IMG/VR virus record: IMGVR_UViG_3300010885_077351
DNA from: an uncultured virus (IMG/VR IMGVR_UViG_3300010885_077351)
Lineage: Duplodnaviria > Heunggongvirae > Uroviricota > Caudoviricetes
Length of the DNA: 20,000 nucleotides
Direction: 5' to 3' (one strand)
Shown: positions 931 through 19,664 of the stretch, in pieces
Position numbering within the stretch: the first letter of the stretch is position 1
How the letters are laid out: every line of letters begins with the position of its first letter
The notes under the pieces: generated by a model
Told to the model about the DNA's origin: nothing
Databases searched by the model: none
What the model saw: the letters and a program-made list of their open reading frames with translations, nothing else
Translations under genes and position numbers: made by a program

Positions 931-3159
931 ATGAGTACATATATAGTCCCAGGTACAAGACTTACCACTTTAACAGCTTTAAGTGTTCTTACAGATGCTG
1001 ATTTGTTTTATGTGGTAGACACAACAACAAATACATCTCGTAAAACAACTTATGAATCTCTTACATCAAATGTACTTAGAGATTTAACTTCATTTTTCTT
1101 GAATTCAACTGGAGGTCGAGTTAATGGTCTGGTTACGCTACTATCTGGTGTTTCAGCTACAAATTTCTTCTATACAAGTGGTGATGGTTTAGTTGTACCT
1201 TATGATAGATCAGACTTTTTATATTTGAGTTCAACTCAGACGGAGATGTCTAAAGCTGCATCACAACAATATGTTATATCTCAGCTAGCATCTGTTAGTG
1301 GTATAACTCAAACCTATTTATTTCAAAATTTTGTAGCTCTTTCTGGGTCTGTATTAACTGCAAATCTTTCAAGTTCAATTGTACCTACTACATCTAGTCA
1401 ATATGTTAATTTAAAGTATATTACAGATAATTATGTACCAAAAACAGGTGGTGTGTTTACTGATTTTATTTCAGTACCACAACCATCTGTTGGTGATCCA
1501 AGTGCAAGGGTTGCAACAGTTGGTTATGTTGAGAGTAGAATTGCTGCACAACCTGGTTCTAGATTGAATAACCTTTCTGCTTTTCCGATTAATAATCGCG
1601 ACAACAAGCACAATAATAACGGTAGGGGTAATAGCGGTAATGGTGTTACTTTTATACGAGATAATGATAGTAAAGTAAGATCTTGTGGTCTATATAGTAA
1701 CGTCAACTCAGGTGGTTATGGATTTTACCAAACACAACTTTATAGTTTTCCTCAACTGCCTATTGAATTTCAAATTAATAACGGTACGGAGTTTGCTACA
1801 AAGGTACTCAATACTGGTCAATCTACTTTTATATTATCTAATTTAGGTTATGTATACACTGCAGGTGATAACACTGCAGGTCAACTTGGTGTTGGTGGTA
1901 TAACTAGAAGAAACACCTTTGTTAATATTACTTCTAGTATTACACCATCAACAACCGGTACTCAAATTACTGGATTGTTTATTAGTCAGGGTAATGACCA
2001 AACAACAACTAATAACTCTGTTTATTTATTGAGTGGTGGTCAGTTATGGGCATGGGGATCCAATAAAATAGGGCAACTTGGTGTTGGATCAACCACAAAT
2101 GTTGCTGTTCCAGCACTTGTAAATTTAGTGAGCCCAGGTTCATCAATTGTTGGTCAATATTTAACTAAAATTGCAGCGTCTAACTCAGCTGCGTTAGGCT
2201 ATGTATTAGCTATAGATAGTAATAAAATAGTGCATGTCGCTGGTTGGAATGCCGCTGGTCAATTAGGATTGAGTGCAGCTATAAATGGTACGGGATCAGG
2301 TAGACGTACTGGTGCCTTTCCAACAAATACCACAACATTTAAAACATCTCAGTTGTGGACAATCTCTAGTGTTCAAGTTTCACCTCATCTACAAACTGTT
2401 CCATTACCGGTATTAATATCCCCTACAATAACTGCAGATGAAGTTTATACAGCTGGGTCAAATTCATACATACTTACTGGTGGTAGTGTATTGTCTTGTG
2501 GTAGAAATGGTACTGGGGCTTGTGGTCTTGGTAACACAACAAGCGCTCCAGGTATCTTAAGTCCAGCTACTACTAGACCTTATTGGCAAACAGTTATTAG
2601 TGATACATCAGGTGCACCCCTAACAGGTGTAGAATATTTAACTACTAGTGGTGATCCAGCTAATATAGGTATCGTAAGCGTTTGTGCTTATATATCATCT
2701 TTATCAACAATTAAAGTGTGGGGAAGCAACAGCAGTGGGCAGCTTGGTACTGGAAATAACGGAAATCAACTAGTTGCGACAACACCATCTAGTGCTCCAA
2801 CAGGCATTCTCAAAGCTAAAATGGTTGGTCAACAGCATAACACCACATTATTTGTTTTAGATAGTGCTGGTGACATATATGTTACAGGTTATGTTGATGG
2901 TGGTTTAGATGGTCGTGGAGAAGGTAACATTAAAGTACAAAATACATTCCAGAAAGTAATTCGACCACAAGGTATTAAATATGTTGACTTCGAAGTGTTT
3001 TCATATGGTAATATGTCTCAATTTAAAACTGTATTAGCTCAATCACTTACCAATGAATTATATGCATGGGGTTACAATACATATAATCAAGGTGGGTTTA
3101 TTAATATACCAGCTACTAAAACAATTATCGATGTACCTATCAAGGTAAGTCTATTCTAA
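931..3159 (+). CDS. RCC1-repeat (beta-propeller) tail fibre / receptor-binding protein
   Basis: 742 aa. C-terminal RCC1-type blades: VYTAGDNTAGQLGVG, LWAWGSNKIGQLGVG, VHVAGWNAAGQLGLS, VLSCGRNGTGACGLG, IKVWGSNSSGQLGTG, IYVTGYVDGGLDGRG, LYAWGYNTYNQGG. The N-terminus (RLTTLTALSVLTDADLFYVVD...SRKTT) and stalk-like motifs (YVNLKYITDNYVPKTGG, VATVGYVE) are typical of phage tail fibres. Confidence 0.8.
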   Translation: MSTYIVPGTRLTTLTALSVLTDADLFYVVDTTTNTSRKTTYESLTSNVLRDLTSFFLNSTGGRVNGLVTLLSGVSATNFFYTSGDGLVVPYDRSDFLYLSSTQTEMSKAASQQYVISQLASVSGITQTYLFQNFVALSGSVLTANLSSSIVPTTSSQYVNLKYITDNYVPKTGGVFTDFISVPQPSVGDPSARVATVGYVESRIAAQPGSRLNNLSAFPINNRDNKHNNNGRGNSGNGVTFIRDNDSKVRSCGLYSNVNSGGYGFYQTQLYSFPQLPIEFQINNGTEFATKVLNTGQSTFILSNLGYVYTAGDNTAGQLGVGGITRRNTFVNITSSITPSTTGTQITGLFISQGNDQTTTNNSVYLLSGGQLWAWGSNKIGQLGVGSTTNVAVPALVNLVSPGSSIVGQYLTKIAASNSAALGYVLAIDSNKIVHVAGWNAAGQLGLSAAINGTGSGRRTGAFPTNTTTFKTSQLWTISSVQVSPHLQTVPLPVLISPTITADEVYTAGSNSYILTGGSVLSCGRNGTGACGLGNTTSAPGILSPATTRPYWQTVISDTSGAPLTGVEYLTTSGDPANIGIVSVCAYISSLSTIKVWGSNSSGQLGTGNNGNQLVATTPSSAPTGILKAKMVGQQHNTTLFVLDSAGDIYVTGYVDGGLDGRGEGNIKVQNTFQKVIRPQGIKYVDFEVFSYGNMSQFKTVLAQSLTNELYAWGYNTYNQGGFINIPATKTIIDVPIKVSLF

Positions 3160-3443: not shown

Positions 3444-3845
3444 TAGATTTGTGATAGTTAGTAGTGGATCTGTAGTTAAAGGTTTTGTGACGATAATAGG
3501 TGTAAATGTTACCTCTACTTTAATTTCTTGATTACATTTTTCACAAATAAAGTTGTTATCCTGATTAGGGTAGATTATTTCTTCGAATGTATTACTACCG
3601 CAAGGACATGGAAATGATACAGTATTACTTGAAATAATTTCAAGCCTTTCATTTAAAAGAAGTTCTTTCTTAATTGAATCATTACGCAATGTAATGTCAT
3701 TATAAAAATAATTACCAATTAATTGTATTAAAAAAGAAAATATAAATGCATGTAACCAACCACCAAATAATGGAGCAAGTGCATATCCTAGAATACAACT
3801 AATAGTAACTGTAATCACCACACTTTGCAAAACTTGTTTAATCAT
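3441..3845 (-). CDS. membrane protein with two TM helices and a C-terminal Zn-ribbon (CPC...CxxC)
   Basis: Hydrophobic segments VLQSVVITVTISCILGYALAPLF and WLHAFIFSFLIQLIGNYFY, then CPCGS...CEKC. Start placed at ATG 3845 rather than TTG 3863 because TTGAAT lies exactly 34 nt upstream, as for three other genes. Confidence 0.7.
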   Translation of the reverse strand: MIKQVLQSVVITVTISCILGYALAPLFGGWLHAFIFSFLIQLIGNYFYNDITLRNDSIKKELLLNERLEIISSNTVSFPCPCGSNTFEEIIYPNQDNNFICEKCNQEIKVEVTFTPIIVTKPLTTDPLLTITNL

Positions 3846-3846
3846 A

Positions 3847-4176
3847 TTATAATTTAAGATCAATAAGAGAATTATTCAACTCGAATAATTCTTCTCTAAT
3901 CCTAATTATCTGATCTATTTGATTATCAATACGCTTACCCTTTAAAAGTGGTATTTCCTTTACACCAGTTTCTAAAACTGACGCAATATTATTAAGGGTG
4001 TTAACCATTTCTCCTATTTGAGAATAAATCTGTGTTAATTCATGAGGTAACTCTGGAGGAGCTTGAGCAGCTGCTTCTTGTTCGTTTTTAAGTAAGTCGT
4101 AAGCAGCTGAATAATCATCACCTAGCTTAGGTGGCTGAGCTCTTGCAACAGAGTATGGATCTCCTACATGTATCAT
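3847..4176 (-). CDS. hypothetical coiled-coil protein, probably late-expressed
   Basis: 109 aa ORF with a perfect TATAAATA 6 nt upstream of the ATG. Confidence 0.7.
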   Translation of the reverse strand: MIHVGDPYSVARAQPPKLGDDYSAAYDLLKNEQEAAAQAPPELPHELTQIYSQIGEMVNTLNNIASVLETGVKEIPLLKGKRIDNQIDQIIRIREELFELNNSLIDLKL

Positions 4177-4182
4177 TAAATA

Positions 4183-4204
4183 TATTTATAACAATCAATA
4201 AATA
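4183..4204. promoter_or_regulatory. back-to-back T4-type late promoter boxes (TATAAATA on -, AATAAATA on +)
   Basis: Minus-strand TATAAATA at 4190-4183 and plus-strand TAAATA at 4199-4204 lie in the 33-nt divergent gap, 6 and 5 nt before the respective ATGs. Confidence 0.65.
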
Positions 4205-4209
4205 ATAGT

Positions 4210-4629
4210 ATGAGTAGCTTTACAAAAAAATTCTTCACACTCCTCGAACAAGATGGACAAGAACAAATCCCAACCCCAGATCAAGAAGCAATGGCTTCAA
4301 CATTAGATGCTGAAACAGATCCAGCATCTCTTGGAGCTGATATTAATTCCCAAGCTGCAACAGCTGTAGCACAACAGCAACAACAAATGATTGGTACAGT
4401 GCAGTCTTGGATTGCTAAGCTTGATGAGTTTGTTAAGTATCTTAACTCACCAACAGGTGAATCTATTCAGAATACCCTCAAGGATGCTTTACCTGATACA
4501 ATTCTTGATAAAATTCGTACAACTGAAACAAAGAAGATTGCTCGTTCAGCTATGGACCTTGCAGCTCTTTCACAGATTTTCCAAGGTTACCTAGCAACAG
4601 CAAGAGATCCGAAGTACAAAGGAGTATAA
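4210..4629 (+). CDS. hypothetical late protein (possible packaged head protein)
   Basis: 139 aa with a late box upstream and a terminator downstream. N-terminus MSSFTKKFFTLLEQD. Confidence 0.75.
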   Translation: MSSFTKKFFTLLEQDGQEQIPTPDQEAMASTLDAETDPASLGADINSQAATAVAQQQQQMIGTVQSWIAKLDEFVKYLNSPTGESIQNTLKDALPDTILDKIRTTETKKIARSAMDLAALSQIFQGYLATARDPKYKGV

Positions 4630-4643
4630 TTTATAAATTAACG

Positions 4644-4680
4644 AAAAAAGCGAGTAGATTAGTTTCTACTCGCTTTTTTT
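4644..4680. terminator. bidirectional rho-independent terminator
   Basis: AAAAAAGCGAGTAGA-ttagtt-TCTACTCGCTTTTTT: perfect 15-bp inverted repeat with A/T tails on both sides, between convergent genes. Confidence 0.85.
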
Positions 4681-5699
4681 ATCTCTGCAAGTTTCACCAT
4701 ACCCATTAATCCGGTAAAACTATTTTCAATAATGAATTCAGGTGTAATTTCATTAAGACTATACTTCATAACAATGTCATTGAAGTCTTTTAATTTTTTA
4801 CCATATTTTGCAGGCCAAATAAAAACGGTTTCACTTTTATCAAGTAATTTTTCAGTTTTAACTAATGATGTATTATCAATCCACTGAGAGTCTAGCACCC
4901 AAATACGAGTATAAAATTGAAAACGAGTAAGCTGTTGTTGTTGGGTCTCGGTAAATAGATGTTCTCCTTTCGAAATACCAGCAACAGCTAACCCATTTTT
5001 AGTAAACATTGCATTAATTGGACCTTCAAACAGAAATATATAGTTAAGATCGTCTTTTACATTACTAATGCCATAAAGAGACTTATCGCTCCCCATCTTA
5101 GACGTATATTTTGACTTAATATCATTACCACTCTGTATGACCGTTCGAGACTGATAGAAAATAATATCTCCATGTTCATTATAAAATGGAATAACCAATC
5201 TATTTTTATGTACCTTATCTTTTAATGAAACATACAAAGCTTTGGGTTTGTTGATAGATTTATGAATTCGTCTTTCCTTGATAAGCTTGAGACATGCTCT
5301 AACAACCTCATTATCTTTATGAAAATTTACTTGAGTTTTATCAAATAGATTGATTGAATCAGTAGGCAATGTTGGTGCAACATATTCTTTCTTTATTACC
5401 GCATCTTTGAAATCGTATACCTTTGAAGTATCGTACTTACTAGCTTCATCTAGAATTTGAGCATATGTAAGCCCTGATATTTTTTCAATCCACTTAAGTG
5501 GTAGTGAACTCCAACCACAATTATGACAGAATATATTATTATTCTTCGGAATGTAAAAACATCTGCGTTTTGAACCTAAAGATTTACCTTCACGACAAAT
5601 AGGACACCCGCATTGATAAGTTTTATTGTATTTGTTGCGTTTAGGCTGATACCCGTACGTATAAAATTTTTCAATGATGTATTCTTCAGGTAATATCAT
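4659..5699 (-). CDS. gp61: T4 gp61-like DNA primase
   Basis: Zn finger CPIC...CHNC, RLVIPFY...FYQSR, KY, TOPRIM FLFEGPINAMF, WVLDS, and C-terminal FIWP...KDFND. Confidence 0.92.
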   Translation of the reverse strand: MILPEEYIIEKFYTYGYQPKRNKYNKTYQCGCPICREGKSLGSKRRCFYIPKNNNIFCHNCGWSSLPLKWIEKISGLTYAQILDEASKYDTSKVYDFKDAVIKKEYVAPTLPTDSINLFDKTQVNFHKDNEVVRACLKLIKERRIHKSINKPKALYVSLKDKVHKNRLVIPFYNEHGDIIFYQSRTVIQSGNDIKSKYTSKMGSDKSLYGISNVKDDLNYIFLFEGPINAMFTKNGLAVAGISKGEHLFTETQQQQLTRFQFYTRIWVLDSQWIDNTSLVKTEKLLDKSETVFIWPAKYGKKLKDFNDIVMKYSLNEITPEFIIENSFTGLMGMVKLAEIKKASRN

Positions 5700-6562
5700 T
5701 TTAATAGTTTCACAATATAACTTTCATAGTCGTTACCAAAGCAAAAAATATCGTACCATCTATCTTGCTTCTTCAAAATAGAATCTAATTTAAGTTCTTC
5801 ACAATACAACTTAAATTGTTTGAAATCATGATTTTGTGCAATATCTAATTGCTCTTTATACCATTCATGTTCATCTGCATGCATAGTATACTTGTCTAAT
5901 CTAAAAAGACTATAGTTTCTTTTAAACTCTTCGCTTTGCTCAGCTGTAGTTGCATATTCACCATCAAAATATTTTTTAATTTTTTTCTTACCCATACCAG
6001 TTACACCAGGTACGTTATCAGACTTATCACCTCTAAAACATTTTTCAACGAGATAATGCTCTTTTGTAACTTTCATTATATCTAAAAAGTTATCAGCGGT
6101 AATTTCACACTTTTTAATAGGATCATATACAGTAACGTTAGCATTAATGCATTGACATAGGTCTTTATCAACAGTAACTATAACTTTCTTACCAGGGAGC
6201 TCTTTGCAAAGGTAAGCCATGCAGTCATCTGCTTCAAGACGTAACGGGAAGAAGTTTTTTACACCAAGACAGCTTAGTAAATGCTTAATATGCTCGTTTT
6301 TAGAGTGAACTTGAGCACTATATTCACGATCTCGATTACCTTTATAGTCAGCGAACATATCTTTACGTTCGTTTACACCATAATCCTTCTTTTCATCCCA
6401 GCAGCAGTAAATTTTATCAGGTTTAAACTTTTCTACATAGGTTTTAACTGAGTTAAGTACCATATATACATGGAGATAAGAGTCTTCACCTTTAACTTGG
6501 TTGTTAGCTACCCAGAAGCAACGATGCACAAGGTTATTTCCGTCTATAATAAGGGTCTTCAT
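5696..6562 (-). CDS. rnh: T4-like RNase H / 5'-3' flap exonuclease
   Basis: LIIDGNNL, YKGNR, EADD, TVDKDL and GDKSDNVPGV (H3TH) motifs. ATGA overlap with the primase gene. Confidence 0.92.
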   Translation of the reverse strand: MKTLIIDGNNLVHRCFWVANNQVKGEDSYLHVYMVLNSVKTYVEKFKPDKIYCCWDEKKDYGVNERKDMFADYKGNRDREYSAQVHSKNEHIKHLLSCLGVKNFFPLRLEADDCMAYLCKELPGKKVIVTVDKDLCQCINANVTVYDPIKKCEITADNFLDIMKVTKEHYLVEKCFRGDKSDNVPGVTGMGKKKIKKYFDGEYATTAEQSEEFKRNYSLFRLDKYTMHADEHEWYKEQLDIAQNHDFKQFKLYCEELKLDSILKKQDRWYDIFCFGNDYESYIVKLLK

Positions 6563-6568
6563 AACCTT

Positions 6569-6596
6569 ATTATAGACGTTTTCCTTATAAAATCAA
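6569..6596 (-). promoter_or_regulatory. sigma70-like promoter TTGATT-N16-TATAAT
   Basis: -35 at 6596-6591, -10 at 6574-6569, 6 nt to ATG 6562. Confidence 0.7.
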
Positions 6597-7828
6597 GCTA
6601 AAAGAGCTTGAACAGGTTTACCTTTATCTGCAACCTTGAATGGTCTGCCTTCTGGTGAGATTACAATTTGATCTACTGGTAATCCTGCTGCAGCTGCAAT
6701 AGTAGCATTGAAGTCAGATGGGCTAACAATGTTTTCAACTGATTTCATACCTTTTTCATCAGATTTACCATATGCTTGACCACCTTTGATACCGGCACCA
6801 ATGAGTACTCCAGAGAAAGCACCTGGATGGTGGTCTCTACCGTTATTAATGTTAATATTTGGTGTTCTACCAAAGTCTGTTGCAATTACAATAAGGGTTT
6901 TATCATAAAGCCCAGATGCTTTAAGGTCTTCAATGAGAGCATTAACAGCTTGATCAAGAATCTTAAGTTTACCTTCAAGAGATTCAAAGTTATTAACGTG
7001 AGTATCCCAACCACCATCAGTAACTTCAATAAACTTACAATTACCTTGTTCAATTAAACGTTTTGCTAAGCAAACACCTTGACCAAAACGATTATTACCG
7101 TATTTGTCTCTGGTTACTTGATCTACCTTAGAAAGATCGAAGACATCAAGCTCATTTGAATTAAGAAGACGAATTGTTTGGTCATAAAACTCAGCATATG
7201 ACTTTTGAGCTGGGTTAACAATCTTATTAGCATCTTTTTCAAGCTTATCTAAGATTTCAATTCTCTTAGAAAACTCTGCTGCATTTTTAAGCTTAGTATT
7301 ATCAAGACCTCTCATTGGATCTGCTATTGGAATAGGAGAATACTTTTTAGGCATCCAACCAGAACCAGGATGATCAGCACCACCGCCGATTAAAACGTTT
7401 TGAGGTACAACTTTTGGTTTATTATCCTCTGTATAATGACACATCCATGCTCCCATATTAGGGTGAACGATTGTACCAATCTTCTTGAATGATGTTTTTT
7501 GTAAATACTGTGCTGCAGCGTGATCACCTGTTGTAACCATCATAGAACGAACAACAGCCATCTTATCACCATGTTTTGCCATGAGAGGAAGGTGTTCTGA
7601 AATCTGATAACCAGCATTAGTGTTAATTGGATTGAATACACCCTTTACTTCTGCATGTGCTTTTGGATCAAATGTATCCAAATGGCTCATACCACCATTC
7701 ATAAAGAGGTAAATGATATGTTCTGCTTTTTTACCTGCAGGAGCAGCTGCTACATGTGGTAGAACGGTTACACCTAAGCCTGCTGATGCAAGATTAAGCA
7801 CGAAATTACGTCTTGTTAAGTTATTCAT
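6593..7828 (-). CDS. DUF1501 family protein with Tat signal peptide (alkaline phosphatase/sulfatase-like superfamily)
   Basis: MNNLTRRNF twin-arginine signal, IIYLFMNGGMSHLDTFDPK, VVRSM, FGQGVCLAKRLIE, GGWDTH, TDFGRTP, GRDHHP, GIKGGQAYGKSD: all hallmark DUF1501 motifs. Confidence 0.92.
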   Translation of the reverse strand: MNNLTRRNFVLNLASAGLGVTVLPHVAAAPAGKKAEHIIYLFMNGGMSHLDTFDPKAHAEVKGVFNPINTNAGYQISEHLPLMAKHGDKMAVVRSMMVTTGDHAAAQYLQKTSFKKIGTIVHPNMGAWMCHYTEDNKPKVVPQNVLIGGGADHPGSGWMPKKYSPIPIADPMRGLDNTKLKNAAEFSKRIEILDKLEKDANKIVNPAQKSYAEFYDQTIRLLNSNELDVFDLSKVDQVTRDKYGNNRFGQGVCLAKRLIEQGNCKFIEVTDGGWDTHVNNFESLEGKLKILDQAVNALIEDLKASGLYDKTLIVIATDFGRTPNININNGRDHHPGAFSGVLIGAGIKGGQAYGKSDEKGMKSVENIVSPSDFNATIAAAAGLPVDQIVISPEGRPFKVADKGKPVQALLA

Positions 7829-7830
7829 GG

Positions 7831-7843
7831 CTTTTATTATTTA
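7831..7843 (-). promoter_or_regulatory. late-promoter-like 13-mer TAAATAATAAAAG (copy 1)
   Basis: Identical 13-mer found upstream of both the DUF1501 gene and the DUF1549/1553 gene (9628-9640). Confidence 0.45.
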
Positions 7844-9621
7844 TTGAATTTGAACTCCGAACTATTAACTAGTGCCCAGATGATGTCATCATCCTGAACA
7901 CCAACAAACTTACTTTTTTCATCAATTGTTGGTTTTCTAACAATATAGACTTAAAAATAACATCAATTGTATCAGCTGGTGATTTGCCTGTAAGTGTTTT
8001 TGCAAGATTTGTGTCTTTATTGATTGCAACTTCAGCTAATTGACCATTCATAAAAGAAATAACTTGTGTAACTGAACCTTCCTTTGAAGATGTATCAATT
8101 AATTCTCTATCACTACGACCAAGTTGTTCAAGAATCGTATTAACTGGATTGTTATCATTAACTTCAGACGCTCTCACTAGAGGGTAGTTACGATATTTTG
8201 GAGCTGTTTCATATTTTGAACGAATCACCTTTTGATATTCTTCATTTTTAGCTTTTAATTTATCAATTGCCAAATCTTCGATACTATATCTCATTATTTT
8301 AACATATTCATCTTGGAAAGTTAACTTAAATGTTTCAGGCTTAGCAATAGCGATACATAACTGAATCCCACAATTGCTCTGCTGTTAAACGTTGTTTGAC
8401 TGGTCCAATGAACACAAATTTATCTGTATTAGTATACATGCCGTCATAGAGTTCTCTTTGAAACAATGTTGTATTGTAAAGAACATACAGGAATTGCTTA
8501 GTATCATAGTTAACGTCTACCATAATCTTAGCAAGAGTGTTCATAAGCTCACCATTAAGCTCTTTTTCATCGTGAATATTATCATAGTTATCCATTATAT
8601 GTTTACCAAACACCCATTTCCAGTAACGATTAGCAATGTTTTTAGTGAATGTTGGATGATTTGGGTTAACTAACCAGCTAATAACATCCTTTCTCATATC
8701 AACCTTATTGTTAATTTCAGTCTTACCAGAAAGGACTGCAGGTATAACAACATCGCCTGGTTTTGCATCTTTATAATTGTAATCATGAGGTAGTTTCAAT
8801 ACACGCTTTTCATCTACTTCAATATTAGATCTCATAGCATTAACAAAGTTGTTAATAGTATTGTTTAACCCACGGTTCTTTATAGGATCAGCTTTAATTA
8901 TAGCATCAATTTCTTCTCTCAAAGCTTTCTGACGAGCTGCTACCGCTGGATCTTTATCTTTACCACGACCTCTAAGTTCTATCTGGGTAAACATAGCAGC
9001 CATCTTATAAAACTGCATTTGGGTGAAGTCTTGGAAAGGATCATCATGGCATTGTGCACAACCAATATCGGTTCCCATGAATACTTTACCTGTACCAATA
9101 AGGTTATCTAATGGCATTCCTAAATCACGATAGAAGTATCCTGTTGCTGGGTTATCATAATATGAACCTGTTGATGTTAACAGATCTGTAACAAACTTTG
9201 AATAAGATTTGTTAGCTGTGATTGAGTCTTTAACATAATCAATGTAAGGACCACCAGAAAAATTGTTAGTGGTGTTAATTCTATCACGCAATCTTAATGA
9301 TTCAGCCCAGAAGTTAAACATATGTGATGTATAACCTGGATGGTTCATAAGAAACTGTATTAAACCTCGTCTCTTATTAGGGTCTGTTGCTTTATTAAAC
9401 AAGTCATACTCTTCATAGGTTGGATTTCTACCAATTATTGTAAGATACGCTCGTCGTAAAAATTTATCATCATCAATTTTACCAAGTGGTATAACATTAG
9501 CTGCTACGTATTGTTTTTGTAACACAGAATCAATATTACTACTGTATGTGTTAAGTTGATCTAAAGTTGCACCAAATGATAGAGCGCAAACACTTACTAA
9601 TATAGCTATAAGTTTTTTCAT
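7837..9621 (-). CDS. DUF1549/DUF1553 (PSD1/planctomycete cytochrome c-associated) secreted protein, about 595 aa, interrupted by two frameshifts (~8355 and ~7944)
   Basis: Sec signal MKKLIAILVSVCALSFGA. DUF1549 motifs FLRRAYLTIIGRNPT, FWAESLR, FMGTDIGCAQCHDDPF (CxxCH). DUF1553 motifs WLVNPNHPTF..NIANRYWKWVFG and RLTAEQLWDS. Continues in another frame as IAIAKPETF...RASEV...LGRSDRE...SVTQVISFMNG, then shifts again to VRKPTIDE...DDIIWALVNSSEFKFNK* (TAA 7839-7837). It joins track ORFs 8341..9621 and 7869..8294. Confidence 0.88.
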
Positions 9622-9627
9622 AGTAGT

Positions 9628-9640
9628 CTTTTATTATTTA
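9628..9640 (-). promoter_or_regulatory. late-promoter-like 13-mer TAAATAATAAAAG (copy 2)
   Basis: ATTAAATAATAAAAG upstream of ATG 9621; overlaps the previous stop codon. Confidence 0.45.
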
Positions 9641-9909
9641 ATAACTTTATTTTTATTATAAAGATATTGTGATTTTAAAAGACTATAAATGTTGTTAGGT
9701 AACTTTTCAACTTCTTCGAGTATTTTATTTTCAACACCGAAGAAAAACCTATCTTTAGGTACTTCTCTGTTTATATTTTTAGGAATAGAGATGAAATAAA
9801 AATTTTTATCATCCTTTTCCATGTAAACGAACATTTCACCTACATAATGCCCATTCTGAACAGCATATGGTATGCTTTTTTTAGGTTCAGGCTCTCGTTT
9901 AAAAATCAT
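9634..9909 (-). CDS. hypothetical phage protein
   Basis: ORF in the replication operon. Likely start is MIFKREPE (ATG 9909), overlapping the end of the upstream gene; the track start is 9927. Confidence 0.7.
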   Translation of the reverse strand: MIFKREPEPKKSIPYAVQNGHYVGEMFVYMEKDDKNFYFISIPKNINREVPKDRFFFGVENKILEEVEKLPNNIYSLLKSQYLYNKNKVIK

Positions 9910-10270
9910 CCCCACCATATTTGTCATTAAATTTACCCATTTGAATTGCGAAAAACTTCATTAGTAATGAATGTAATGCATCTGCATGTATGGGTGTATT
10001 ACATTTTGTTAAAGCTATAGGTACACCTTCACTATTATACCCTAATAACATAAAACAATCAAGAAATTCACTTATTGTACAAACAAGAGCATTATTAATA
10101 TCTTCAACCCCTTTGTTTTTCTTTACTTCTTTCAGTTTGTTAGAAAGAATTTCATTTATTAGATTTTTAATATCTATATTCGATTGCACCTTCTCAGTCT
10201 CATCTTGAGAAGGTGCTTTGGGAGTGATTTTTTTCCTTTTATATTTTTTAGGTTCATCACTCATAAACAT
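9899..10270 (-). CDS. hypothetical phage protein
   Basis: 123 aa, tightly packed in the operon. Second ATG (10264) is 5 nt after a TAAATA box. Confidence 0.75.
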   Translation of the reverse strand: MFMSDEPKKYKRKKITPKAPSQDETEKVQSNIDIKNLINEILSNKLKEVKKNKGVEDINNALVCTISEFLDCFMLLGYNSEGVPIALTKCNTPIHADALHSLLMKFFAIQMGKFNDKYGGDDF

Positions 10271-10272
10271 AT

Positions 10273-10626
10273 TTAATCCAGTTTATAAAACGGATTAGTT
10301 GTGTCATTTTGTGATATACCTTTTTCAAGCAAATATTCCACAATAACCTCAATAGAATGGGTTTTGATAAAGTAGTTACGAGGAAACCTCACCCCACCAT
10401 CATCAATTTCAAACATAATTTCATTAAGTTTTTCTTTATTTTGATAACATGTAATAAACACAGATGTAACACCTGGATCCACAAGAATAGTCCACTTACG
10501 TGGATCAGAAATCCCATATTTCTGGAATATTCTAAGAGTAATAAAACCACTATCTTTTAAACGCTTAATAAAATATCCTGATGTTTTAAGCTTATTTTTG
10601 TCTTGGTATGTTAGTATGTGGTCCAT
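10273..10626 (-). CDS. hypothetical phage protein
   Basis: 117 aa, globular-looking ORF packed 1-2 nt from both neighbours. Confidence 0.75.
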   Translation of the reverse strand: MDHILTYQDKNKLKTSGYFIKRLKDSGFITLRIFQKYGISDPRKWTILVDPGVTSVFITCYQNKEKLNEIMFEIDDGGVRFPRNYFIKTHSIEVIVEYLLEKGISQNDTTNPFYKLD

Positions 10627-10627
10627 G

Positions 10628-11338
10628 TTATTGTGTGAGTGATGATAAAATATATCTTAATTTAAGCGGCCCTTGATCAATATCAAATATAAGTACCCCA
10701 TACTTATTATTGATCGATACACTTACATTATCTGAATTAATAAGTTTAAAGTTATCAAAGTTAATAGGTATATTTTTAAGTTAATTACCAACTATATTTT
10801 TACCTACTTGCAATTGAAATGAATCTGTATTATGTCTAGCTTTATCTGTAAGCTCACACTTTACCATACCATCTTCAAGATAAAAATAAATTTTATTAGT
10901 TTCGGTAGTAAAAGTAGAAGCTTTATTAATTTTACTAAAATCCTCTTTTACCAACTCAAAAGTAAAGTCGGTATCAAAGGACATAATCTTTTCAGGTTTA
11001 ACTGAAGGGGGTGCAATGAAATCATCTTCAAAAAGGTGATATTTAAATTTAATTTCTGGGGATTTATACTCCAGGTTATTTTGATTAACCTGGAGTTCAA
11101 TTTCATCACTATTAATACAGTCTAAAACTCGATTAAGTTTTTTTAAGTCCGGTATACATAAGGATCTTTCGGATTCATTCGAATGGTTTAGAATCGCGTA
11201 AAGGATCAACGTATTGTCCGTCGACGTTACTATCGACGATATTTTCTCCTTCTCCACTTTCACTATACACTGATCGTTTATCTTCGCTAGAGACTCTAGA
11301 AACTTTTCGATTTGTTGCTTTTTTAACTTTAACTTCAT
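10628..11338 (-). CDS. gp45: T4 gp45-like DNA polymerase sliding clamp, 236 codons with one in-frame TAA (10781-10783)
   Basis: gp45-like pattern (LAKIND, LCIPDLKKLNRVL, KFKYHL..DDFIAPP, FTFELVKEDFSKINKAS, LTDK...TDSF). After the TAA the frame continues for 50 codons (IPINFDNFKLI...VSINNKYGVLIF...LRYILS), matching the gp45 C-terminal strands, and ends 1 nt before the next ATG. Confidence 0.8.
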
Positions 11339-11696
11339 ATTGTGTGAATAATTCTACTAACTTACCAAGATTGCTTTCAATACCTTTTAATATAGAAACA
11401 ATATCTGAATTATCAACTAGTTGAATAGGTCTAGATTCTTGTGGGTGTTGAATAACATGTGGTAAATTAACAGTATTTGGTGGTAGTTGAGGTGGTGGAG
11501 CAAATTGAGGTTGTGGTGGTGGAGGTGGCTGAGCATTTCTCAACGTACTCTCAAACAACTGCTTAACCTGCTCACTTTGAGGTCTCAAATGAGCTGATTG
11601 ACCAACTAAATTTTGATCAATTTTTCTAGCCTCACCATAAACGCTACCCATTAAATTGAGTAGCATTTTTTGTTGTTCAATTGCGTCTGGGTTCAT
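11175..11696 (-). CDS. hypothetical Pro/Gln-rich, probably partly disordered protein
   Basis: 173 aa. ATGA-coupled to the gp32 stop. Contains QPPPPPQPQFAPPPQLPP. Last 164 nt overlap the clamp gene. Confidence 0.75.
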   Translation of the reverse strand: MNPDAIEQQKMLLNLMGSVYGEARKIDQNLVGQSAHLRPQSEQVKQLFESTLRNAQPPPPPQPQFAPPPQLPPNTVNLPHVIQHPQESRPIQLVDNSDIVSILKGIESNLGKLVELFTQYEVKVKKATNRKVSRVSSEDKRSVYSESGEGENIVDSNVDGQYVDPLRDSKPFE

Positions 11697-12544
11697 AGAT
11701 CTTTAAGAAGTTCATCGATATCAGCATCTTCAATACTAGAAGAATTAACTGATGGTTGCTTAACCTTATTACTAAGCTCTGCAATCGCTTCATCTGCTTC
11801 AGGTAATGAAGTTGTAGTTTCACGGTCTTCAGCGGTCTTACAATAAAAATGCTCATCAAGCATTTGCTTAAGCTCATCTTCAGTCTTAACCCGGAATACA
11901 TTTTCAAGGTCATGTGTAGACTCAAGAACTTCATCTTGCTTGGATTCACTCAAACCAAGATCTTTACCCACAGAAGTAAATCGTGAAGAAGTATATACTG
12001 GATAGTCACCTTGCTTTTCAACCTTAATCTTCAAGTTAACACCTTCTTTAGATAGATCAAAAACTCGCATACCGAACTCTTCAGCTTCATCACCACTAAT
12101 AGCGCTATTGATAATATTACCAAGCTGTTTACCATAACGAAGAATTTTTACTTTGCCGTTATTTTCTGGCTTAGACGGATCATCAATTACATAAACATTA
12201 GTAAGCCATTGTTCGGCACGACGAATAGTTTTCATTTTCTCTTTTTCTTCTTCAGTACCGGTACGAAGAACTTTATATCTTTCTTCAGCAATAGGATCAC
12301 GTTCACCGAATGTAGTAGGTGAAATAGCACTTACATACTTACCAGTAGCAAGAGAATTCCAACCATGCGTAAAATGATGAAAAAGAGACTGCTTTGGATT
12401 TTTTGTATTAGGTAGAAGCCTTACTGTATAGGTATTACCAGGTTTAAGTTGCATAATATCTTGCAAACTTCCTTGCTTATTATCTTGCGAAGTTAAAGCT
12501 TCTTTAATGGAATCGAACATTGACGTTAGGTTATATTTACTCAT
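11693..12544 (-). CDS. gp32: T4 gp32-like single-stranded DNA-binding protein
   Basis: VRLLP, HGW, SPTTFGERDPIAE, NVYVIDDPSKPENNGKVKILRYGKQL, FDL..G.NLKIKV, Y..S.F, acidic tail ending DIDELLKDL. Confidence 0.9.
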   Translation of the reverse strand: MSKYNLTSMFDSIKEALTSQDNKQGSLQDIMQLKPGNTYTVRLLPNTKNPKQSLFHHFTHGWNSLATGKYVSAISPTTFGERDPIAEERYKVLRTGTEEEKEKMKTIRRAEQWLTNVYVIDDPSKPENNGKVKILRYGKQLGNIINSAISGDEAEEFGMRVFDLSKEGVNLKIKVEKQGDYPVYTSSRFTSVGKDLGLSESKQDEVLESTHDLENVFRVKTEDELKQMLDEHFYCKTAEDRETTTSLPEADEAIAELSNKVKQPSVNSSSIEDADIDELLKDL

Positions 12545-12554
12545 AGTATATCTT

Positions 12555-12582
12555 ATTATAAATTAGGTTTTGATAAATTCAA
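12555..12582 (-). promoter_or_regulatory. sigma70-like promoter TTGAAT-N16-TATAAT
   Basis: -35 at 12582-12577, -10 at 12560-12555, 10 nt to ATG 12544. Confidence 0.65.
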
Positions 12583-15244: not shown

Positions 15245-16501
15245 ATGAATAGACGTGAATTTATACGAGTTGGTGCTGCTGGTTCGATGTTATTGCCTGA
15301 TTTTTTAAGAGCTCAATCACAAAACAAAGCAAAAGCAACATAAGTTGTACAGATTTATTTGCCAGGTGGTATGAGTCATCAAGATTCATGGGATTACAAG
15401 CCATTTGCACCATCTGAATATAGAGGACCATTTGATCCAATTAAAACAAAAATTGACGATGTGACTTTTGGGTCACTTCTTAAAGAAACTGCTAAGATTA
15501 GTGATAATTTAACTGTTATCCGTTCAATGACACATGGCGAAGCTGCTCATGAGCGTGGAACACATAATATGTTGACTGGTTATAAGCCATCACCAGCACT
15601 AAGCTACCCATCTTTTGGTAGTGTTATTAGTCATGAATTAGGAAATCGCAACAATTTACCAGCATACGTTCTTGTTCCAAACCAATTTGCACCAGAAAAT
15701 GGTACAGGTTATCTATCAACAAAATATGGAGCATTTTCTCTAGGTTCTAACCCAGAAGATCCAGGATTTGCTGTTAAAGATCTCAATTCACCTGCAGGTA
15801 TTAATGATAAAGCATTTGATAGACGTCGTAACCTACTTGGTGCTGTTGATGAACACTTTAAAACCCGTGAATCTAATGTAGATGCTGTTAAAGCAATGGA
15901 TTCGTTTTATAATGATGCATATGCAATGATGTCGTCAACACAAGCACGTGAAGCGTTTGAGTTATCAAAAGAACCAGATGTGGTAAAAGATGCATATGGT
16001 CGTAATGCAGCTGGGCAACGGCTGTTATTATCTCGTAGATTGATTGAAGCTGGTGTAAGAATGGTTACAGTAACGTATGGTTCATGGGATCACCACTCAA
16101 ATCTTAAAGGATCATATGAGCAAAACATGATTAACTTTGATAGAGCCTTTGCTGCATTCATTACAGACCTTAAACAACGTGGTTTACTTAGCTCTACACT
16201 GGTAATGGTAACATCTGAATTTGGTAGAACACCAAAAATTAACGCAACTAATGGTAGAGATCATTGGCCAAGAGTATTTTCAACAGTACTAGCAGGTGGT
16301 GGTGTCAAATCCGGATATGCTTATGGTACATCCGATGCTTTAGCTTCAGAACCAGATAATAATCCAGTAACTCCTGGTCAACTAGCTGCTACAATGTATA
16401 GTTTAATAGGTGTTTCACCAAGAAAGAAGCTAATGACACCAGATTTAAGACCGATTGAAGTCGTTTATAACGATTCACCAATTGAAGATATCTTAGTTTG
16501 A
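15245..16501 (+). CDS. second DUF1501 family protein with Tat signal peptide, 418 codons with one in-frame TAA (15341-15343)
   Basis: ATG 15245 gives MNRREFIRVGAAGSMLLPDFLRAQSQNKAKAT*VVQIYLPGGMSHQDSWD, in frame with track ORF 15359..16501. Motifs VIRSMTH, PSFGS, AGQRLLLSRRLIEAGVR, WDHH, SEFGRTP, GRDHWP. Confidence 0.9.
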
Positions 16502-17137
16502 CCACTTATTCAAGAACCATTCTTGACCATTATTCCACTCATCTGTAAATTCTTTCAATCCAGGTGACGCATGAGTGATAGTTATATCACCTACACCGAT
16601 TTTAAAGCCAGCTTTATGGCAAGCCATTGAAAAGTCTAGGTCATAAAAGTGAAACCCAGCAGGATTTGTTTCATCAAACCTTACTTTTTGTAATACTTCT
16701 GTTTTAACAGCCATAAACACACCATCAATTAGTATAACACGATCAGGATAACTACCAAAACTGGTCATAAACTTGGTACCTGTAGGTTCACATAGATGAG
16801 CTACAGCTCCTCTATGATGTTTTCTATTACTCATTAGATGCCATAATGCTGGTTTCTGTAATTTTGCTTCTCTTGTTCCTGCTAGCCCTACAACATCAAA
16901 GTTTGTTCCAAGATTATAGAGTTGCCTTTCAATTGCTTCAGGTGCTTCTATAATAACATCATCATGTACGAATACAATCCAGTCTGATAATATAAAATCG
17001 TCAATAGCATCATTATAGACAATAGGTAAAGGGTCTGTATTGTTTGCTGCCCAAGATACATCATATATATCTTTTGTGCTGCGATATAGTAAAGTTGATT
17101 TTGGATCACCTTTGGTTGCTGATACGAATTTTATCAT
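16493..17137 (-). CDS. GT-A fold glycosyltransferase (GT2-like)
   Basis: YNDAI, IVFVHDDV (DxD-type), VVGLAG, LIDGVFMAV, RFDE, FHFYDLDFS, ITHAS motifs. Confidence 0.85.
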   Translation of the reverse strand: MIKFVSATKGDPKSTLLYRSTKDIYDVSWAANNTDPLPIVYNDAIDDFILSDWIVFVHDDVIIEAPEAIERQLYNLGTNFDVVGLAGTREAKLQKPALWHLMSNRKHHRGAVAHLCEPTGTKFMTSFGSYPDRVILIDGVFMAVKTEVLQKVRFDETNPAGFHFYDLDFSMACHKAGFKIGVGDITITHASPGLKEFTDEWNNGQEWFLNKWSN

Positions 17138-17835
17138 ATAATTAAGAATGGGGAGTTAGGTTTGAATTTACCAACTTCTTTAAATTTATACTCTTTTGTA
17201 AGTTTAACAACCTTTCCTTCAGGTAATTCAACCCAACCCTTTCCTTTAATAGACGAATAACTACCATTATCATTAATATAGAGGGTACTACCTTGTCTTA
17301 CTAGGTAGACGTTAAGGGATGTAGTGTTAACAATACAGAGAGCAAACGTCCCATTAAGTCTCTCGCATATCGTTTCAATTATTTTAACTTCATCAGTAGA
17401 AGAAGATCGAGATTTATTACCTTTGAGCTCATTCCATTTTTCTTGAATCATACACACAATAACAGATGTATCTACAGGATTTTCATTCCAATTACAATAT
17501 TGTTCATTCAAACTTTCATGATTTGTTAAAACACCATTATGAAACACAAGCCAATCTTCTTGCTCAAATGGATGTGATGTATCATAGTTATATTTTCTTA
17601 CTGAAGATGTTGGAGCTTGTACATGCCCCATATAGTAAGCATGGTTTTTAGGTTTGAGCTTTTGCTTTTCGAAGTTAATATAACCTTCCTGCTTTAAAAT
17701 ACTTACATCGTCAACATTACCAGCTGGTGCTTTCATCAGCGTTAGTAATGACGATGCAAAGTTTCCACGAGCTTTATTAGCTTCATATAAAACTTCAAAC
17801 ATTGATTGATCGGCTGAACCGAATATAGAACACAT
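17134..17835 (-). CDS. class II (Ntn) glutamine amidotransferase-like protein
   Basis: N-terminal MC nucleophile, RG, GHVQAPT, SHPF, HNGVLTN, VDTSVI, GTFA motifs; stand-alone domain. Confidence 0.85.
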   Translation of the reverse strand: MCSIFGSADQSMFEVLYEANKARGNFASSLLTLMKAPAGNVDDVSILKQEGYINFEKQKLKPKNHAYYMGHVQAPTSSVRKYNYDTSHPFEQEDWLVFHNGVLTNHESLNEQYCNWNENPVDTSVIVCMIQEKWNELKGNKSRSSSTDEVKIIETICERLNGTFALCIVNTTSLNVYLVRQGSTLYINDNGSYSSIKGKGWVELPEGKVVKLTKEYKFKEVGKFKPNSPFLII

Positions 17836-17870
17836 AATATATTAAATATAGACGTTAATACACAAAAAAA

Positions 17871-17878
17871 TATAAATA
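17871..17878 (+). promoter_or_regulatory. T4-type late promoter TATAAATA
   Basis: Exact T4 late consensus, 5 nt upstream of ATG 17884. Confidence 0.75.
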
Positions 17879-17883
17879 ATTTT

Positions 17884-18936
17884 ATGAATTTTAATTCTCT
17901 CGTTACCAAACTAGAAATCCTTGAAGAAGCTAAAACTGGCCGCTTTGAAAAGCTCTTCCAAACAGGCTACCTTAAAAAAGCTATTGAAGATAAAAAACTT
18001 GGTACAGCAAGACCGTTAATGTTTGAATTTATTATTAACTTTTTGAAAGAGAAGGGTGTAGTACCAGATGAAACATATTTTAAAGGTTCACGCGCTGCTG
18101 CTGACGCAGGTGAATTTATTAAAAATCTTATTGATACAGGTTTACTTAAAGATGAAATTGCTGATGAATTCAACGAGTATATAAAAACTAATTTAGGTGA
18201 CTGGATTGGACTTAAAGTGAGATCTTTACGTGAACGCGGTAAAGGACAAAATCGTGGTAAAACATTCGGATCTGCTGAAGAATTTAACGCATTTAAAAAT
18301 GTTAAAACCAAAGAAGAAATGGATGCTGAAAAGCAAGCTGCAAAAGATAAAAAACAAGCTGCAGCTGACGATACATCACCGATAGCCCCTTATGAGTTTA
18401 CCGATTATTTAGTTAATATAGTATCTAAGGTACCTCTAGATATTAAACTAGTAGCTAGAATTTTAACAGCTGCAAGTAATGGTAAATCAGTTAATGTGGA
18501 TGATACTAGCACACCTACTAATATTGATATATCTTTAGATCCTGAATCAGCAATTGTAGATAAGGTTAAAAAGAACGGTGCAGATGCAACAGCTGACTCA
18601 CTTTTAAAAGTATTGCCGAAATATTTAAAAGTTGATGCTGAAGATATGGAAATTTTTATAAGCTCACCACATACAATGGATATTGAATCTGAGTTTGAAT
18701 CTAAAAAACCAAAAACTAAAGCTCAACGAACTGGTGTTGATTTACAAGGTTATGGAATGGGTACTATTGCTCCAGATGACTCTGAGAGACGTCTTGCAAA
18801 CCCATTTTAAGATGAGGAAGTCCTTGTTCAAAATGAAAACCACAAACCAAAAGTGACATTCATTTCAACCAAGGACCGTTTTAAGCCAGCAAATTCCTGG
18901 CAACAAGCTGCTAGAGCGGAGATGTTTTACAAATAA
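17884..18936 (+). CDS. hypothetical late protein (308 aa to first TAA; 350 codons if the in-frame TAA at 18808-18810 is passed)
   Basis: Late box upstream; charged protein starting MNFNSLVTKLEILEEAK. Frame stays open 41 codons past the TAA, to TAA 18934-18936, overlapping the queC end by 10 nt. Confidence 0.7.
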
Positions 18937-19664
18937 GTCTCATAAGGGATTTTTTTGCAGTTATGCTTAACCCATACAGACGATAAGTCTTGTTTATATT
19001 CGATTGGATCAATATAACCTGCTGAAACAAATCCAGCTAACCTTAAACTACTAGAAGGTGAATAAGCATCTGCTTTATCTTCACCTGCATAGCAAGTCCA
19101 AGTATCGCTAAACTTCACACCAAGTCTAATACCCTCTTCAATAATCTCTTTTTTAGACATTGTAATTAGAGGAGCTTCAACTTTAATGCGATGCTCTCGA
19201 TTTAAGTCAGCAACTGCATTGATTGCATCTAGAAACTCAGGGCTTCCATCCCAATAACCTGCTAATGAATCAACTTGAGCTGCTCCATACCAAACTGTGC
19301 TCGCTCCAACTCCTTCTGCATATGATAGAAGGTAAGTAATAAAAAGCATATTACGGAATGCAACGTAGCTTTTCGGTTGAGCCTCACCTCTCATCTCTCT
19401 AACGTCTGGTGTATCAATATCTAGATTAGTTAGAGAAGAAGTTGGTGCTAATACATCTAGTGGTGTATTAATAATTTTCATTTTGATAATTTTCTTATGA
19501 CCTACACGGCGTATAAGTTGTTTATGAGCGCAATCTAGTTCTTTTTTATGTCTTTGACCATAATCAAAAAATAAACAATAAATTTCATCAAACTGTTCAA
19601 TCGCTTTTTGAAGTAGGACAGAAGAATCCATACCACCAGAGAATGCTAATACTATTTTCGACAT
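18927..19664 (-). CDS. queC: QueC-family (7-cyano-7-deazaguanine synthase-like) PP-loop ATPase with degenerate Zn site
   Basis: IVLAFSGGMDSS, FDYGQRH..EL, SSLT, SYVAFRN, GYWDGSPEF, APLITMSKKEI, TWTCY. Confidence 0.9.
   Translation of the reverse strand: MSKIVLAFSGGMDSSVLLQKAIEQFDEIYCLFFDYGQRHKKELDCAHKQLIRRVGHKKIIKMKIINTPLDVLAPTSSLTNLDIDTPDVREMRGEAQPKSYVAFRNMLFITYLLSYAEGVGASTVWYGAAQVDSLAGYWDGSPEFLDAINAVADLNREHRIKVEAPLITMSKKEIIEEGIRLGVKFSDTWTCYAGEDKADAYSPSSSLRLAGFVSAGYIDPIEYKQDLSSVWVKHNCKKIPYETYL

Follow-up and report, generated by a model that had tools for sequence, protein, structure and literature searches.

An exported-type PSCyt2-PSD1 and DUF1501 gene module in a T4-like freshwater phage

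Background

The window analyzed here is a stretch of 20,000 nucleotides from an uncultured virus (IMG/VR record IMGVR_UViG_3300010885_077351; Duplodnaviria, Heunggongvirae, Uroviricota, Caudoviricetes). Two adjacent genes on its minus strand are the subject of this report. The first, termed the helper, encodes a protein with the domains PSCyt2 (DUF1549) and PSD1 (DUF1553) and a motif resembling a c-type haem attachment site; the second encodes a DUF1501 protein, termed DUF1501-a. A further DUF1501 gene, DUF1501-b, lies on the plus strand. The carrier is a T4-like freshwater myophage, and it can be said with strong confidence that the genes form a genuine, conserved phage module that has long been resident in this lineage.

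Modules that combine DUF1501 with PSCyt1, PSCyt2 and PSD1 are known from Planctomycetes, Verrucomicrobia and Lentisphaerae (hereafter PVC bacteria), and the passages that treat them give their function as unknown (Kamneva et al. 2012, PMC3542564; He et al. 2017, PMC5615132). Rhodopirellula baltica holds 41 copies of each PSCyt2/PSD1 domain, as stated in the passage of Wecker et al. (2009) on these domains. An initial annotation of the window, made from its nucleotide sequence alone, was not aware of the pair having been described in phages; in agreement with this, no description of a DUF1501/PSCyt2/PSD1 module in phages was found in the full-text literature, supplements not covered. The only phage report, in the excerpt that mentions it, concerns a weak CDD match in a 61-aa Pseudomonas phage protein.

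Genes at the locus

The features of the locus are collected in Table 1. Pfam profiles confirm every family that had initially been assigned to the pair. DUF1501-a matches the DUF1501 profile (PF07394) over positions 1-390 of 390, with an E-value of 3.1e-97 and 326.7 bits (cut-off 27). In the 426-aa frame that opens at the helper start, PSCyt2 (PF07583) is found at residues 29-215 (7.5e-35, 121.2 bits) and PSD1 (PF07587) at residues 310-422 (6.2e-18, 65.5 bits), the latter covering profile positions 2-119 of 244. In the nearest virus record used for comparison (termed G001, 84.8 kb), the helper is intact, both domains lie in one polypeptide, and the PSD1 match spans profile positions 2-240 of 244 with 88.2 bits. 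PSCyt1 (PF07635) has no match in the helper even at E-values up to 10. A possible link between PSD1 and DUF1800 was dropped, as DUF1800 also lacks a match at E-values up to 10.

The helper had been presented as one protein gene. Its domains, its motif and its spacing from DUF1501-a hold; its single open reading frame (ORF) does not, because the gene is spread over three frames in the window. The frame from position 9621 opens MKKLIAILVSVCALSFGAT in the window translation. The mid-PSD1 stretch, read alone, has no Pfam match, and the same residues fall within the PSD1 match of G001. The last 33 codons (...RKPTIDEKSKFVGVQDDDIIWALVNSSEFKFNK, with the end ...EFKFNK-TAA) return to the first frame, and the stop lies exactly 8 nt ahead of the ATG of DUF1501-a, the distance originally reported.

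Table 1. Features of the module and its flanks in the window
Feature	Position	Strand	Remarks
Helper gene, PSCyt2 + PSD1	7837..9621	minus	595 aa when intact; three frames in the window, two deletions
Only long open frame from the true helper start	8341..9621	minus	426-aa truncated product, end ...VMYRYC*
Mid-PSD1 stretch of the helper in another frame	7869..8294	minus	141-aa ORF
CAQCH, c-type haem-attachment-like motif, helper residues 188-192	9046..9060	minus	translation and alignment
Sec-type signal peptide MKKLIAILVSVCALSFG, likely cut before AT	9571..9621	minus	motif and hydrophobicity
2-bp deletion site	8354..8355	minus	relatives ATGTCTAT, window ATGTAT
1-bp deletion site	7940..7941	minus	relatives TTGGTT, window TTGTT
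DUF1501-a, intact, 411 aa, Tat signal, predicted alkaline-phosphatase-superfamily fold	6593..7828	minus	Pfam, model; identical to G001
Twin-arginine motif T-R-R-N-F-V, DUF1501-a residues 5-10	7799..7816	minus	translation
DUF1501-b, Tat motif NRREF	15245..16501	plus	418 aa in G001; broken by TAA 15341..15343 in the window
Flank: RNase H-type 5'-3' exonuclease	5696..6562	minus	profile matches
Flank: sliding clamp	10628..11338	minus	236 aa in G001; 185 aa in the window (10781..11338)

Both members of the pair carry the export signals that the initial annotation described, a Sec-type signal on the helper and a twin-arginine (Tat) signal on DUF1501-a, judged here by motif and hydrophobicity. A basic N-terminus followed by a hydrophobic stretch is present in 54 of 58 helper relatives, and the helper model has a predicted local confidence (pLDDT) below 50 over residues 1-16. 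The N-terminus of DUF1501-a reads MNNLTRRNFVLNLA. Its residues R6, R7 and F9 are at least 90% conserved in an alignment of relatives (A1), where the pattern RR.[FL] occurs within the first 25 residues of 50 of 57 rows; R6 and R7 reach at least 95% among 116 viral and cellular rows. An N-terminal twin-arginine signal is described as frequent in the DUF1501 family in the portion of Kamneva et al. (2012, PMC3542564) that deals with it. The CAQCH motif of the helper is also present as first noted: residues C188, A189, Q190, C191, H192, D194, P195 and F196 are invariant among 58 aligned relatives, which includes both cysteines and the histidine of the motif.

Lesions private to the window

The two deletions in the helper (after 8354 and after 7940) occur in the window only, when it is aligned to four related viral loci (L024, L001, L003 and L002), and the window helper equals that of G001 apart from the 3 missing bases. 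Over 19,785 aligned columns the window and G001 differ by 8 substitutions and these two gaps, with no further indels. Six of the 8 substitutions are of the C>A or G>T type, and three turn a sense codon of G001 into a TAA stop of the window. One is in the sliding clamp (10781..10783, GAA in G001), which leaves 185 aa of 236 aa; another, at 18808..18810 (GAA in G001), shortens the product of the ORF at 17884..18810 to 308 aa from 350 aa in G001; the third replaces a TCA of DUF1501-b (15341..15343). Logan contigs from four freshwater-metagenome runs, belonging to four studies, were also compared with the window. The extra base at 7940 is present in contigs of all three covering runs and the extra AG at 8354 in contigs of both covering runs, and the deleted forms at these two positions are found in none of the covering public-run contigs.

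The lesions very probably do not represent the phage lineage: the two deletions and the private stops are most likely assembly or sequencing errors, or belong to one defective genome. Given the stop in the clamp gene, this copy is unlikely to be a replicating phage. It is improbable that the lesions are instead real and mark a phage genome that is defective or decaying in nature, its module put out of action by the breakage of the helper and DUF1501-b. That view draws on the placement of the lesions, as the sole two indels in 19.8 kb both sit within the helper, outside long homopolymers, and one of the three private TAA codons sits in DUF1501-b. However, the same copy has stops in the ORF at 17884..18810 and in the sliding clamp, where a lytic phage should not tolerate one, and a substitution set in which 3 of 8 changes are nonsense and 6 are of the C>A or G>T type would resemble damage or error rather than an evolving sequence. 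Moreover, the deleted form is in no public-run contig, and G001 and L024, otherwise the same as the window, have the intact gene. Programmed frameshifting was also considered for the split helper and rejected, because near-identical genomes have one uninterrupted frame. A caution follows for users of this record: helper, clamp and second DUF1501 are broken only in this assembly, and its gene calls are no evidence of decay.

Phage context of the module

Together, the window and G001 encode a T4-like set of proteins that comprises primase, RNase H-type exonuclease, sliding clamp, gp32, a DnaB-type helicase, PhoH, a family B DNA polymerase, UvsX, gp15, the portal gp20 and a prohead protease. The pair sits between the clamp region and the RNase H-type exonuclease gene, as the initial annotation had it, and the base composition of the module is the same as that of its flanks, which also agrees with that account. 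The order clamp, three small ORFs, helper, DUF1501, RNase H, primase is common to seven IMG/VR loci. The T4 late-promoter motif TATAAATA has 2 matches in the window, none of them near the module, and these are fewer than expected by chance.

The families of the pair are otherwise typical of Planctomycetota and Verrucomicrobiota, as would be expected if the assembly were a chimera or if cellular DNA had been binned as viral by mistake. A chimeric join near ~6590 or ~9630 had been named as one outcome that would undo the finding. Yet both junctions are bridged by independent contigs (X1 record 1, 500-8045; X2 record 11, 9424-10055; X3 record 20, 6971-18167), and the arrangement is therefore not a chimera. 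The seven loci with the same clamp-module-RNase H order and a GC content at third codon positions (GC3) equal to that of phage core genes also stand against an artefact, the chance of which is vanishingly small.

Conservation among phages

A single-protein scan of IMG/VR returned 26 loci with DUF1501-a at 50-100% identity. One helper among them is cut at a contig end and four loci are without upstream DNA; in each of the other 21, where the upstream DNA is complete, the helper reads without interruption over 591-623 codons. The decay in related phages against which the initial annotation had warned is not seen in these 21 loci. An alignment-based scan of the same database yielded 408 pattern-matching stretches, 319 of which encode a DUF1501 relative. 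The best 80 of the 319 have a median GC of 0.353, with a helper directly upstream in 55 of the 71 that have enough DNA. In 16 viral loci, the gap between helper and DUF1501 is 4-8 nt (12 loci), an overlap (1 locus) or filled by a small ORF (3 loci). The inserted ORFs (L016, 9708..10004; L017; L018) are 70-100 codons long and have a weak DUF5661 match (E 2.8e-4).

The phages maintain the pair under strong purifying selection. The median pairwise ratio of nonsynonymous to synonymous change (dN/dS, Nei-Gojobori) is 0.110 for the helper (23 usable of 78 pairs), 0.093 for DUF1501-a (48 usable of 78) and 0.107 for DUF1501-b (15 usable of 28). GC3 is 0.17-0.23 in module genes and 0.21-0.27 in phage core genes, and the cellular homologues have a median GC of 0.588. 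In FastTree trees, the 16 viral a-type rows group in a single clade (support 100), and the 9 b-type rows share one side of a branch, beside orphan DUF1501 genes of Verrucomicrobiaceae. A larger tree of 82 viral and 91 cellular rows needs only 5 changes of the viral/cellular label, and its all-viral clades hold 49, 23 and 8 rows. The initial annotation had proposed the domestication of the two-gene module by a phage, to be checked by a search for viral copies in IMG/VR and for a viral clade under purifying selection; the loci and stretches counted above, the intact pairs, the virus-only clades, dN/dS of about 0.1 and the phage-like GC3 support domestication in this lineage.

In the related locus L002 (5796..8824), DUF1501-a has 99% and the helper 91% identity to G001, whereas identity in the flanking genes is 47-81% (68-77% for gp32, clamp, RNase H and primase, 47-57% for two small ORFs). 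Either related phages have exchanged the pair as a cassette, apparently recently, or constraint on it is much stronger than on the core genes.

Deposited phage genomes have no counterpart of the module. Neither the region nor DUF1501-a nor the helper has a match by megablast or tblastn among 50,697 deposited phage records, and DUF1501-b has only two weak partial matches at 29-30% coverage. PHROGs, NCBIfam and PADLOC have no match for the three module proteins. A scan of viral DNA with the RNase H protein returned only 3 close relatives, all with the module, which is uninformative on presence and absence. At two related loci (L009, 6987..7439; L012, 7293..7733), a P-loop kinase of 146-150 aa lies beside the module. 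This kinase was considered as a link to sulfur metabolism on the strength of an APS-kinase-like match (32.5 bits, cut-off 21.1); since it also matches the generic AAA_33 and zeta-toxin models, it was not counted as such.

The second DUF1501 gene

DUF1501-b is absent from the initial account of the window. The G001 copy matches PF07394 with an E-value of 1.1e-108 and 364.3 bits, and its twin-arginine stretch reads NRREFI. DUF1501-b accompanies the pair in 13 of the 26 DUF1501-a loci, in two layouts. In the first (6 loci) it lies apart from the pair, on the opposite strand, in the replication region; L001, a locus of this layout too short to show DUF1501-b, is outside the 6. In the second (7 loci) it lies 0.4-1.8 kb upstream of the helper, beside the gp15 and portal genes.

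The nearest named relatives of DUF1501-b are proteins of Verrucomicrobiaceae and Prosthecobacter, at about 60% identity. The a-type and b-type proteins are far apart in the FastTree tree, which indicates separate acquisitions and not a duplication within the phage. The module therefore comprises three genes: the helper, DUF1501-a and a separately acquired DUF1501-b. No PSD1 partner is found near the Verrucomicrobiaceae b-type orthologues in any of the 5 loci examined. Among these, one orthologue directly follows ftsA-ftsZ (L123, 1815..6314), and another lies two genes after a D-Ala-D-Ala carboxypeptidase gene (L121, 2463..6285).

Cellular relatives

Cellular loci were drawn from 5 of the 64 parts of a genome collection. 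All but two of the 80 loci returned belong to Planctomycetota or Verrucomicrobiota, and the other 2 are labelled 'uncultured bacterium'. The order helper then DUF1501 is found in 72 of the 80; 2 lack it despite upstream DNA, and 6 have too little DNA. Among the matches listed, no cellular relative of DUF1501-a exceeds 49% identity. Five Verrucomicrobiaceae genomes contain 19-125 first-look DUF1501 candidates each (91-125 in four of the five).

Neighbours of the cellular pairs were compared in 37 sister-clade loci (145 ORFs). Only one kind of gene recurs, in 5 loci (L099, L041, L052, L059 and L086), where a protein with PSCyt1 (CxxCH) and leucine-rich repeats is encoded just downstream of DUF1501. 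This PSCyt1-leucine-rich-repeat gene suggests a three-gene variant of the cellular module. A true APS kinase gene lies downstream of one cellular pair (L058).

Predicted fold of DUF1501-a and its complex with the helper

The model of DUF1501-a (pLDDT 88.1) has, by structural comparison, the fold of the alkaline-phosphatase superfamily, about equally near ENPP6, PafA and the sulfatases, in keeping with the likeness to phosphatases and sulfatases that the initial annotation gave for the family. Its best fold match is ENPP6 (5ege_A; Z 21.0, 3.0 Å, 245 aligned), beside PafA (5too_A; Z 20.4, 4.0 Å, 278 aligned) and a sulfatase (1p49_A; Z 18.8, 3.7 Å, 251 aligned). Sulfatases overall reach Z of about 17-19, and Foldseek E-values of about 4e-8. 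Residues D54, K56, H103, D275, H277, R321, R331 and H333 are 100% conserved among the 116 rows, and this invariant Asp/His cluster with basic residues would fit a metal site with anion binders. The formylglycine motif of sulfatases, C/S-x-P/A-x-R, is not found at any plausible site in a-type or b-type rows. The only pattern match common to the a-type is CLAKR at residue 253, in a mid-protein helix, and it is absent from 2 of 16 rows; L018 also has SDPVR mid-protein, and none of 9 b-type rows has any match to the pattern. Profile searches give only marginal sulfatase matches. A search of the PDB with the DUF1501 profile found no DUF1501 structure, and its best E-value (0.0031) is to a sulfatase, in the C-terminal third only; hhalign of DUF1501 against a Verrucomicrobial sulfatase gives a probability of 7%, again in the C-terminal third only.

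The helper model is all-helical (pLDDT 86.8). Complex prediction for the mature helper and DUF1501-a gave a score of 0.67, against 0.00 for the best of 3 controls. Of 157 solved complexes 116 attain this score, as do 2 of 215 mismatched pairs; these counts are approximate here, because alignments made for this analysis were used. The runs have at least 61% of their contacts in common, and the partner's pLDDT is at least 86. The predicted interface joins helper residues 393-593 to a helical insert of DUF1501-a (residues 142-222), and the 426-aa truncated product of the window would therefore lack most of it. Within viral a-type rows, the interface shows no extra conservation (0.83 vs 0.83 for the rest). 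In the b-type, residues corresponding to the a-type interface are less conserved than the rest (21% vs 35% consensus identity), which agrees weakly with a solo enzyme. The prediction supports the two-subunit assembly that had been proposed, and the helper and DUF1501-a are likely to form a heterodimer.

A working mechanism can be outlined from these models. Both products would be exported to the host periplasm in early or mid infection, alongside the activity of the replication genes, and DUF1501-a would dock by its helical insert (~142-222) on the C-terminal PSD1 part of the helper (~393-593). DUF1501 may be a metal-dependent enzyme with D54, H103, D275, H277 and H333 as candidate ligands and K56, R321 and R331 as candidate anion binders, and its substrate would probably be an anionic ester, phospho- or sulfo-, or a group related to these. 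Targeting would be the task of the helper, which might also bring a haem. For the phage, the most likely gain would be a supply of nutrients while it replicates. An esterase or nutrient role of the pair is tentative.

Alternative functions

A different possibility, and a rather unlikely one, is that the pair is a periplasmic redox enzyme, in which the helper is a true c-type cytochrome that exchanges electrons with a redox metal centre of DUF1501, and through which the phage taps or dumps electrons. In SorAB-like periplasmic dehydrogenases, a Tat-exported catalytic subunit is paired with a Sec-exported cytochrome c subunit, an architecture that the phage pair would resemble. The split routes of the phage pair would be those expected, with Sec for a cytochrome c apoprotein and Tat for a subunit folded around a cofactor, and C188, C191 and H192 are invariant in the 58 relatives. 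The PSCyt1-leucine-rich-repeat gene that closely follows DUF1501 in 5 of the 37 scanned cellular loci points the same way, as does the lower confidence of the helper model near the motif (block means 76 and 63, residues 181-200). Electron transport has been proposed for the cellular module in the relevant section of Kamneva et al. (2012, PMC3542564). However, the alkaline-phosphatase-superfamily structures that match DUF1501-a are hydrolases, transferases and mutases, and the 50 listed fold matches include no oxidoreductase; the helper is without a cytochrome fold match in Foldseek and VIA, and CxxCH lies away from the predicted interface. The literature passages that concern these proteins contain no demonstration of haem attachment for any PSCyt2 protein.

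It is still less probable that the module serves envelope remodelling or superinfection exclusion, with DUF1501 acting on lipid, lipopolysaccharide, peptidoglycan or a surface glycan and so altering receptors or the envelope. LtaS, LtaP, EptA, MCR-1 and PbgA/YejM are among the structural matches (Z 15.7-16.5), but these transferases score below the soluble phosphodiesterases and sulfatases, and DUF1501 (411 aa, with a Tat signal only) lacks a membrane anchor domain such as LtaS and EptA possess. Gene neighbourhoods offer further hints. The phage has many glycosyltransferases, one of which adjoins DUF1501-b; peptidoglycan hydrolase genes adjoin the module or interrupt it in three viral loci (NlpC/P60 in L026, Amidase_2 in L013 and L023); and 2 of the 5 Verrucomicrobiaceae b-type orthologues follow ftsA-ftsZ or a D-Ala-D-Ala carboxypeptidase gene. 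With 2 of 5 cellular loci and 3 viral loci, these neighbourhood hints are anecdotal, and PADLOC gave no match.

The best explanation overall, held at a probability of about 55%, is that the phage carries a long-resident exported module of PVC type in which a putative metallo-enzyme docks on the helper, and that the lesions of the window are unrepresentative. Several observations count against this explanation. The 116 rows show no universally conserved Ser, Thr or Cys at a nucleophile-like place of DUF1501-a; S48 varies among them (S 66%, T 21%, A 14%). The Pfam profiles Sulfatase (PF00884; 20.4 bits, cut-off 25, C-terminal third only) and Phosphodiest (17.7 bits, cut-off 23) match below their cut-offs. 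For the helper, neither a cytochrome-like fold nor any other is matched: Foldseek gives 0.2 as its best E-value, with none at or below 0.001, and the best match VIA-wide is a phycobilisome linker fragment (Z 5.6, 4.0 Å, 107 aligned), below the meaningful level for a helical protein. The CxxCH motif is outside the predicted interface residues. The cellular neighbourhoods of the closest pairs are heterogeneous, with scattered sulfatases, TonB receptors and kinases, and indicate no substrate. All trees are FastTree trees with partial cellular sampling. As for the lesions, 3 of the 5 disruptive ones fall in module genes, although these genes account for about 22% of the DNA compared (binomial p ~0.07), which leaves some probability to a real inactivation in one variant; Logan contigs, moreover, drop rare variants.

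Other genes of the window and of G001

A 742-aa protein with RCC1 repeats (PF00415, 3.6e-23) is encoded at 931..3159, adjoining the replication genes; such a beta-propeller is unusual for a T4-like phage. The region 16493..19664 contains a set of the 7-deazaguanine/queuosine type, with QueC at 18927..19664 and a glutamine amidotransferase at 17134..17835. Genes for GTP cyclohydrolase I, a PTPS/QueD-like protein and a radical-SAM-like protein are found elsewhere in G001, which also encodes several glycosyltransferases, including the one adjoining DUF1501-b. Together, the 7-deazaguanine genes and the glycosyltransferases suggest DNA hypermodification.

Comparison with known systems and significance

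The Pfam families of the phage module are those of the PVC modules, and so is the placement of the helper upstream of DUF1501 on one strand, which 72 of the 80 cellular loci show. Both also have a DUF1501 with a Tat signal and a helper with a signal peptide and CxxCH. The phage module differs in its carrier, which is a lytic-type T4-like phage and not a PVC bacterium, and in sequence, as the phage genes fall in virus-only clades with at most 49% (a-type) or about 60% (b-type) identity to cellular genes. The phage helper is also minimal, with 595 aa, PSCyt2 and PSD1 and neither PSCyt1 nor a carbohydrate-binding domain, whereas the stop-to-stop frames of the cellular partners extend over 636-1184 codons. 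PSCyt1 is part of several, though not all, of the helper architectures described in the pertinent passages of Kamneva et al. (2012, PMC3542564). In copy number, one pair and one solo DUF1501 in the phage contrast with the 19-125 candidates of Verrucomicrobiaceae genomes.

With the alkaline-phosphatase superfamily (e.g., NPP/ENPP, PafA and type I sulfatases), DUF1501-a has in common the predicted core fold, the Asp/His cluster and the basic residues. In contrast to its members, it has only 8-18% sequence identity to them and sub-cut-off Sulfatase and Phosphodiest matches, neither a formylglycine motif at a plausible site nor a universal Ser/Thr nucleophile was identified in it, and it appears, from the complex model, to need a helical partner.

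Aquatic T4-like phages are known to carry exported auxiliary genes that derive from their hosts and serve nutrient handling in the periplasm, e.g., pstS and phoA of cyanophages, alongside phoH. The present phage resembles them as a T4-like carrier with PhoH, which G001 encodes. Those genes specify single subunits with known function, whereas here a module of probably two subunits would use two export routes.

Few gene families of Planctomycetes and Verrucomicrobia are as expanded as DUF1501 and the PSCyt/PSD1 proteins. The phage pair is single-copy, small and AT-rich, which makes it easy to synthesize and suited to expression, structural work and assays, and the complex model provides a predicted interface to probe. 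Its presence in these phages is also an ecological pointer, in that the activity would pay off during lytic infection in lakes. It is possible, but doubtful at present, that the three genes constitute a compact periplasmic system of aquatic T4-like phages, evolved among phages in virus-only clades, that reprograms the ester (sulfur or phosphorus) or redox chemistry of hosts of the Verrucomicrobia/Planctomycetes type. If this is true, the system would be a new class of two-subunit viral auxiliary enzyme, and it would be the simplest natural version of a family that has gone unexplained for about two decades.

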